Shown here piece after piece: positions 1-224 of a stretch of 224 nt of DNA. Positions within the stretch are counted from its first letter, which is position 1. Every line of letters starts with the position of its first letter. This DNA comes from Escherichia coli (lineage in GTDB: Bacteria > Pseudomonadota > Gammaproteobacteria > Enterobacterales > Enterobacteriaceae), in assembly GCF_003334355.1 (NCBI RefSeq), contig NZ_QOWP01000120.1. One strand, given 5' to 3'. The position numbers and the translations under genes were made by a program. The notes beneath the pieces were generated by a model. That model searched no databases, had not been told where the DNA came from, and saw only the letters and a program-made list of their open reading frames with translations.

Positions 1-16
1 AATTTGAGAGACTCAC

Positions 17-34
17 GAACAACTTTCGTTGTTC
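17..34 (-). other. Small spacer hairpin with GAAA (GNRA) tetraloop
   Basis: Perfect inverted repeat gaacaac (17-23) and gttgttc (28-34) around a 4-nt loop. In minus-sense RNA this is GAACAAC-GAAA-GUUGUUC, a 7-bp stem with a GNRA tetraloop. No U-tract follows in the transcript (next bases are GUGAGUCUCUCAAAUU), so it is not an intrinsic terminator. Confidence 0.5.
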
Positions 35-60
35 AGTGTTTCAATTTTCAGCTTGATCCA

Positions 61-75
61 GATTTTTAAAGAGCA
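61..75 (-). promoter_or_regulatory. Spacer boxA antitermination element (binding site for the NusB/NusE-containing rrn antitermination complex)
   Basis: Minus-strand sequence TGCTCTTTAAAAATC (+ strand gatttttaaagagca) contains the boxA core GCTCTTTAA, close to the rrn leader boxA TGCTCTTTAACAA. It sits immediately 3' of a hairpin in the transcript, the boxB-then-boxA order described for rrn leader and spacer regions. Confidence 0.7.
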
Positions 76-76
76 A

Positions 77-114
77 ATATCTCAAACATCACCCGAAGAT
101 GAGTTTTGAGATAT
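77..114 (-). promoter_or_regulatory. boxB-like stem-loop with UUCG tetraloop, upstream of spacer boxA in the transcript
   Basis: Minus-sense RNA AUAUCUCAAA-AC-UCAUC-UUCG-GGUGA-UG-UUUGAGAUAU. Outer stem is 10 perfect bp (77-86 with 105-114). Inner stem is 5 bp including one G-U wobble that pairs only in minus-sense RNA (it would be a C/A mismatch in plus sense). The stem closes a C(UUCG)G tetraloop (+ strand cgaa at 94-97). Confidence 0.6.
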
Positions 115-148
115 TAAGGTCGGCGACTTTCACTCACAAACCAGCAAG

Positions 149-224
149 TGGCGTCCCCTAGGGGATTCGAACCCCTGTTACCGCCGTGAAAGGGCGGTGT
201 CCTGGGCCTCTAGACGAAGGGGAC
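149..224 (-). tRNA. gltT|gltU|gltV|gltW: tRNA-Glu (anticodon UUC), complete 76-nt gene with encoded 3' CCA
   Basis: Reverse complement of 149-224 reads GTCCCCTTCGTCTAGAGGCCCAGGACACCGCCCTTTCACGGCGGTAACAGGGGTTCGAATCCCCTAGGGGACGCCA. It folds as a cloverleaf: acceptor stem GTCCCCT/AGGGGAC (7 bp), discriminator G, CCA; anticodon stem CCGCC/GGCGG with loop CTTTCAC (anticodon TTC, + strand gaa at 188-190); T-arm AGGGG/CCCCT with loop TTCGAAT. It matches E. coli tRNA-Glu as I remember it. The paralog cannot be resolved from 224 bp; the symbol lists the four E. coli K-12 copies. Confidence 0.95.

Follow-up and report, generated by a model that had tools for sequence, protein, structure and literature searches.

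The 224-nt stretch of Escherichia coli DNA analysed here (the window) reads as the minus-strand distal part of a tRNA-Glu-type rrn 16S-23S spacer, a dispersed repeat present in seven copies over positions 1-77 and in four copies over positions 78-224, with a strain-dependent operon home for the exact 224-base allele. We put the probability of this reading at about 0.96. It rests on the placement of the window in finished genomes, on its RNA features, on copy counts and on comparison of the copies within and between strains.

The placement follows from a 100% match in the O157:H7 strain PV15-279, which has the 16S gene on one side and the 23S gene on the other, in the operon bounded by clpB and kgtP, that is, rrnG. 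There, 45 nt separate the start of the window from the 23S gene downstream, and the window ends on the first (5') base of tRNA-Glu. Together with the Rfam and ARAGORN calls described below, this placement identifies the window as the distal two-thirds of a tRNA-Glu-type spacer, written on the antisense strand. Every exact and near-exact match among the loci fetched was located in the interval from an annotated 16S to an annotated 23S gene. ARAGORN, Rfam and the RefSeq annotation (gltW/U/T/V) all recovered a single tRNA-Glu(UUC) gene inside the window, the content expected of a tRNA-Glu-type spacer. The open reading frames of the window are all trivial (20-26 aa) and carry no protein-coding signal, a promoter and terminator scan of the window returned no matches and thus no independent transcription signal, and a repeat scan found only the two expected inverted repeats. 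Weak Rfam matches to SNORD24, Plastid-psbl-rps4, mascRNA and a Tymo tRNA-like element were rejected; all score below gathering and overlap the tRNA or the spacer, and they are therefore taken as chance or tRNA-likeness.

The tRNA-Glu(UUC) gene, of the gltT/U/V/W type, occupies positions 149-224 on the minus strand (76 nt), with an encoded CCA at 149-151, and is supported by ARAGORN (anticodon ttc), Rfam RF00005 and RefSeq. The RF00005 match scores 60.1 bits against a gathering threshold of 29 and covers model positions 1-71 of 71, a whole match with a full cloverleaf. The gene is invariant, with no difference in a position-wise comparison of 12 Glu-type copies (K-12, PV15-279 and 14EC033), and it is also identical in the exact copies of strains 26561, AR_0369 and 720632. 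The adjoining 34 nt (positions 115-148, minus strand) comprise the tRNA 3' trailer and a spacer segment, which is copy-variable at 116, 120, 121 and 124.

For comparison across genera, an alignment of 41 sequences (40 distinct) was assembled from E. coli copies and Enterobacterales loci retrieved by a boxA...tRNA pattern. Its first 77 columns contain two sequence types of tRNA-Glu(UUC) in the rrn spacers of Enterobacterales: the E. coli type (…AGAGGCCCAGGACACC…GGUAAC…) and another (…AGCGGUUAGGACUCC…GGCAAC…) seen in Klebsiella, Silvania, Huaxiibacter, Superficieibacter and Escherichia sp. ESNIH1. Outside the window, 171 nt separate 16S from tRNA-Glu in K-12 rrnB, K-12 rrnG and rrnB of strain 26561; the interval is 85 nt in rrnC and rrnE of K-12 and in the four Glu operons of each of PV15-279 and 14EC033. 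This length polymorphism likewise shifts among operons and strains.

Directly upstream of boxA lies a boxB-like hairpin (positions 77-114, minus strand; 38 nt). It was found as an inverted repeat and comprises a 10-bp lower stem, an internal loop, a 5-bp apical stem and a UUCG loop, with a minimum free energy of -14.9 kcal/mol. Across the 40 distinct Enterobacterales sequences of the alignment, 96.5% of cells are paired at this hairpin, and both sides have changed in 7 of its 15 pairs. When both hairpins of the window were scored jointly, the covariation score was reached by none of 500 column shuffles, and slid controls fell to 25-48% pairing. In K-12 rrnG, all five apical pairs are swapped (UCAUC/GGUGA to AGACU/AGUCU); these changes compensate each other, so the hairpin fold is kept.

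The spacer boxA itself, UGCUCUUUAAAAA, occupies positions 63-75 on the minus strand; its core, UGCUCUUUA, was read directly at 67-75, and the element is near-invariant in the alignment. This core is identical to the boxA consensus, and the stem-loop at 77-114 (minus strand) stands before it, as expected of a boxB-boxA element (PMC6614797). In rrn operons, boxB and boxA occur in the leader and again in the spacer, with the same boxA consensus (PMC6614797), and each operon has two boxA copies, one upstream of 16S and one upstream of 23S (PMC4807359). Judged from its sequence and from the literature on such elements, the spacer boxA of the window would be the site on which NusB/NusE of the rrn antitermination and chaperone complex load. 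NusB/NusE binding by the spacer boxB-boxA and its promotion of 23S synthesis were reportedly described by Pfeiffer and Hartmann in 1997 and Berg et al. in 1989.

Closer to 23S, a hairpin of the form CAC(U)GAACAAC-GAAA-GUUGUUCGUG is predicted at positions 14-38 (minus strand), with a GNRA tetraloop at 24-27 and copy-variable positions at 25, 26 and 28. It falls inside the consensus structure of Rfam StyR-44. Among E. coli copies, T25C yields a GAGA loop and T26G a GCAA loop, both of which retain the GNRA pattern, and with G28A the closing pair becomes a U-G wobble. Conservation of this hairpin across genera was not found in the alignment, where 54.7% of cells are paired in a poorly aligned region; the low pairing is attributed to that poor alignment and to other sequences that replace the region in other genera. 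The StyR-44 family (RF01830), a pre-23S spacer fragment, matches positions 1-71 (minus strand) with 81.5 bits against a gathering threshold of 54 (E = 3.5e-13). The match covers the first 71 of 107 model positions, its 3' end being cut by the window edge, and homologous loci give full-length matches at 122-123 bits. StyR-44 was described as a 109-nt RNA with seven copies upstream of 23S within the ribosomal operon, possibly only a metastable processing intermediate (PMC2943607).

The initial annotation had placed the window inside an rrn operon present in several near-identical copies per genome, and the public E. coli genomes bear this out. When 5,426 complete genomes of E. coli were searched with megablast, 5,425 of them matched, at 37,958 places in 5,432 records, with a median of seven places per genome; all but ten of these places (37,948) are chromosomal. 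The copy number in the source sample is taken over from these public genomes. Full-length alignments of the window in K-12 MG1655 fall in rrnB, rrnC, rrnE and rrnG, at 94.2-99.6% identity, and only positions 1-77 align to rrnA, rrnD and rrnH, whose spacers hold tRNA-Ile and tRNA-Ala. These alignments resolve the window into two repeats of different copy number, a refinement that goes beyond the initial annotation in naming the part of the operon and in placing a step from seven copies to four at 77/78. The segment 1-77 is common to all seven operons, Glu- and Ile/Ala-type alike (100% identity in K-12 rrnA and rrnD, 98.7% in rrnH), and homology stops at 77. The segment 78-224 is confined to the four tRNA-Glu-type operons (rrnB, rrnC, rrnE and rrnG), the only ones to give full-length matches in K-12, PV15-279 and 14EC033.

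The multi-copy caveat was to be abandoned if unique flanking sequence lay within a few hundred bases. In PV15-279, non-rrn sequence is first reached about 1.6 kb out past 16S and about 3.2 kb out past 23S/5S, and at these distances the caveat stands.

Copies within one genome differ at a small set of positions. Seven genomes were sampled, and in three of them (K-12 MG1655, O157:H7 PV15-279 and 14EC033) all four Glu-type operons were compared position by position. Mismatches of the four copies to the window number 1, 3, 3 and 13 in K-12, 0, 1, 1 and 1 in PV15-279, and none at all in 14EC033, where rrnB, rrnC, rrnE and rrnG are all exact. In K-12, rrnB has the single difference T25C, rrnC and rrnE differ at positions 120, 121 and 124, and rrnG differs at 13 positions, mostly in the 77-114 hairpin and with 116 among them. 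In PV15-279, a single base tells the operons apart: rrnG is exact, rrnC has T26G, and rrnB and rrnE have T25C. The paralog-variable positions are accordingly 25, 26, 28, 81-116 and 120-124 (with 120, 121 and 124 the ones seen in the last interval). The expectation that single-base variants here may be inter-copy heterogeneity was thus observed directly. The perfect identity of the four copies in 14EC033 and the single-base differences elsewhere could partly stem from assembly polishing or collapse rather than from biology. Among closely related O157:H7 records, two hold an exact copy (100%) and two others have a best copy at 99.6%, at similar record coordinates and possibly at the same locus; this contrast could be due to recent gene conversion or to a polishing error at one loop base.

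The allele of the window combines a GAAA loop, the state TC..C at 120/121/124 and a UUCG-topped boxB hairpin. Operons were named by the unique genes beside them, and exactness was confirmed by string search; this 224-base allele was found in rrnG of PV15-279, in rrnB of strain 26561, in rrnE of AR_0369 and in rrnC of both 14EC033 and 720632. An exact copy is absent from K-12, where rrnB comes closest (1 mismatch) and rrnG is the most divergent (13). To estimate frequency, records were ranked by the best place of each and sampled at 60 evenly spaced ranks. Matches at 100% occurred only at the first 4 of the 60 ranks, by which roughly 5-7% of complete E. coli genome records would carry the exact allele, and in most genomes of this sampled ranking the best copy is 1-4 mismatches from the window. 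Because the exact allele sits in different operons in different strains, the allele-to-operon map is unstable and permits no assignment without the strain's own finished genome. The initial claim that such a window cannot be assigned to a specific operon is therefore upheld, with the exact allele in four different operons over five strains and all four copies exact in 14EC033.

An opposing view is that spacer variants are stable, operon-specific markers, so that the window is assignable and the caveat overstated. The single exact copy of PV15-279, with rrnC, rrnB and rrnE each one base off, speaks for it, as do the four copies of K-12, which fall into three distinguishable alleles with a very distinct rrnG (13 differences). 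Yet the spread of the exact allele over four operons in five strains and the uniform copies of 14EC033 run against it, the rrnG copy resembles the window least in K-12 yet is identical to it in O157, and the discrimination in PV15-279 hangs on one base, within the range of read and polishing error. As a general rule, this view is unlikely and is refuted by the present results; it survives only where a finished reference of the same clone is at hand, and assignment is feasible only against such a genome, sometimes by one base. Less likely again is the converse, that inter-copy differences are mostly assembly or polishing errors and the real copies in a cell are identical. The region is indeed badly handled in many public records, and the related O157:H7 records do differ in their best copy (100% versus 99.6%). 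However, the differences of K-12 rrnG form a coherent 13-base block with five apical pairs swapped and compensated, which is no error pattern, the loop variants all stay GNRA, and alternative boxB hairpin tops of the K-12 kind recur in other genera of the alignment.

The least credible account, to which we give almost no weight, derives the window from an rrn fragment carried by a phage or plasmid, and not from an operon on the chromosome. Matches do occur in 14 phage-collection and 87 plasmid-collection records, but none of them is at 100%, and the chromosome accounts for 37,948 of the 37,958 places in E. coli genomes. Those of the collection records that were inspected are bare rRNA-operon contigs, labelled UNVERIFIED_ORG or non-mobilizable, and many of the "plasmid" entries are megabase-sized with 4-8 places, which indicates mislabelled chromosomes or chromids. 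Among the inspected records, OR844775.1 ("Escherichia phage ECO111 5-P", 5,386 bp) contains an rRNA operon and nothing else, OR850364.1 ("Staphylococcus phage SA 1298 Kay", 1,627 bp) is a bare rRNA operon with an E. coli-like spacer, and CP088871.1, an E. coli "plasmid" of 7,211 bp, is an rRNA operon alone. Their content is 16S, tRNA-Glu, spacer and 23S, with 5S in one; they are host rRNA-operon contigs and no mobile elements. A phage or plasmid origin of the window was rejected on this inspection.

These records also illustrate the warning that short-read assemblies often collapse or mis-join such regions, for which public records supplied bare rrn contigs, terminal patchworks and a chimeric-looking join. 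A pattern scan of species-representative genomes gave at least 57 stretches. E. coli, Salmonella enterica and K. pneumoniae are missing from the matches listed, although all E. coli Glu-type loci fetched fit the scan pattern, and no taxonomic range was drawn from the scan. Contigs shorter than 1 kb (207-984 bp) account for 35 of the 57 cross-species matches listed; they come from short-read drafts, and many have names with high k-mer coverage. Fifteen short contigs were checked with Rfam: most end in the last 56-251 nt of 16S, in the first 97-271 nt of 23S, or in both, and the shortest hold the tRNA and spacer only. The short contigs checked are isolated repeat contigs.

Other records show the same trouble. 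In the RefSeq "complete" genomes of XL1-Blue (NZ_CP081007.1, 4649881-4663358) and IH5 (NZ_CP168949.1, 5151122-5167198), pieces of the spacer lie in terminal patchworks of truncated genes, tRNAs, and IS and RHS fragments, which are apparently small contigs joined end to end. The IH5 record has one partial place for the window, against the usual seven. In a metagenome-assembled "Oxalobacter" sp., the match (12851-13074) lies on a 49-kb contig whose terminal 3.4 kb consist of 23S and spacer sequence 97-98% identical to E. coli, and the remainder of the locus has no match to E. coli rrn flanks. This tail points to contamination or a chimeric join. The Enterobacteriaceae-type tRNA-Glu spacer was also seen in two assemblies of another unrelated taxon, Chryseobacterium.

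As to how the region works, its parts may be ordered as follows. The region would be transcribed within the 30S pre-rRNA, from which tRNA-Glu(UUC) would then be excised. The boxB-like hairpin and spacer boxA would re-load NusB/NusE and the remaining antitermination/chaperone complex before RNA polymerase reaches 23S, and the StyR-44 region would form the remaining spacer, leading into the 23S processing stem. Nus-factor binding and the processing steps are taken over from the literature on rrn operons. Gene conversion between operons may keep the copies near-identical and shuttle a few variant bases among them, a process that would place one and the same 224-base allele in operons that differ from strain to strain. 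García-Martínez et al. in 1996 (J Bacteriol) and Antón et al. in 1998 (J Mol Evol) are said to have reported mosaic variation among the spacers of E. coli rrn operons. The unstable allele-to-operon map fits short-tract gene conversion, which we infer as its cause. Concerted evolution among rrn copies through short-tract gene conversion has been documented (PMC6002687).

A more speculative idea is that the copy-variable bases (GAAA/GAGA/GCAA at 24-27; the boxB apical stems at 81-102) are non-neutral and tune Nus loading, 23S processing or StyR-44 stability operon by operon, which would give each operon a distinct expression behaviour. We regard this as very improbable. The structure-preserving variation is compatible with operon tuning, and purifying selection on structure alone explains it equally well.

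The practical relevance of these results is to data handling only. Variants called from short reads in the window should be treated as a mixture of four paralogs over 78-224 or of seven over 1-77, contig ends or joins near the window are suspect, and the window alone is unfit for placing a sequence in the genome or for strain typing. Two refinements are usable: a depth step is expected at 77/78, and positions 25, 26, 28, 81-116 and 120-124 are known to vary among paralogs.

Compared with known systems, the window resembles the rrn leader (boxB-boxA-boxC) and the lambda nut sites in having the boxA core UGCUCUUUA behind a hairpin, and its order, boxB then boxA, is that of rrn (PMC6614797). It differs from the leader in being the second, spacer copy, which would act before 23S instead of 16S, and from both the leader and lambda nut in that no boxC was identified in it and in that its boxB sequence is free to vary while the stem is kept. 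Its match to Rfam StyR-44 (RF01830) is above gathering but shortened by the end of the window. With the E. coli Ile/Ala-type spacers (rrnA, rrnD and rrnH), it has positions 1-77 in common, and with them boxA, the GNRA hairpin and the StyR-44 region; upstream of boxA those spacers are unrelated to the window, with a different hairpin and with tRNA-Ala where the window has tRNA-Glu. Position, gene content and sequence all agree with the E. coli tRNA-Glu-type spacer (rrnB, rrnC, rrnE and rrnG; gltT, gltU, gltV and gltW), from which the window shows no difference in kind, although K-12 lacks its particular allele. Every feature of the window fits this long-described spacer with its boxB-boxA element, which is already known and involves no new biology.
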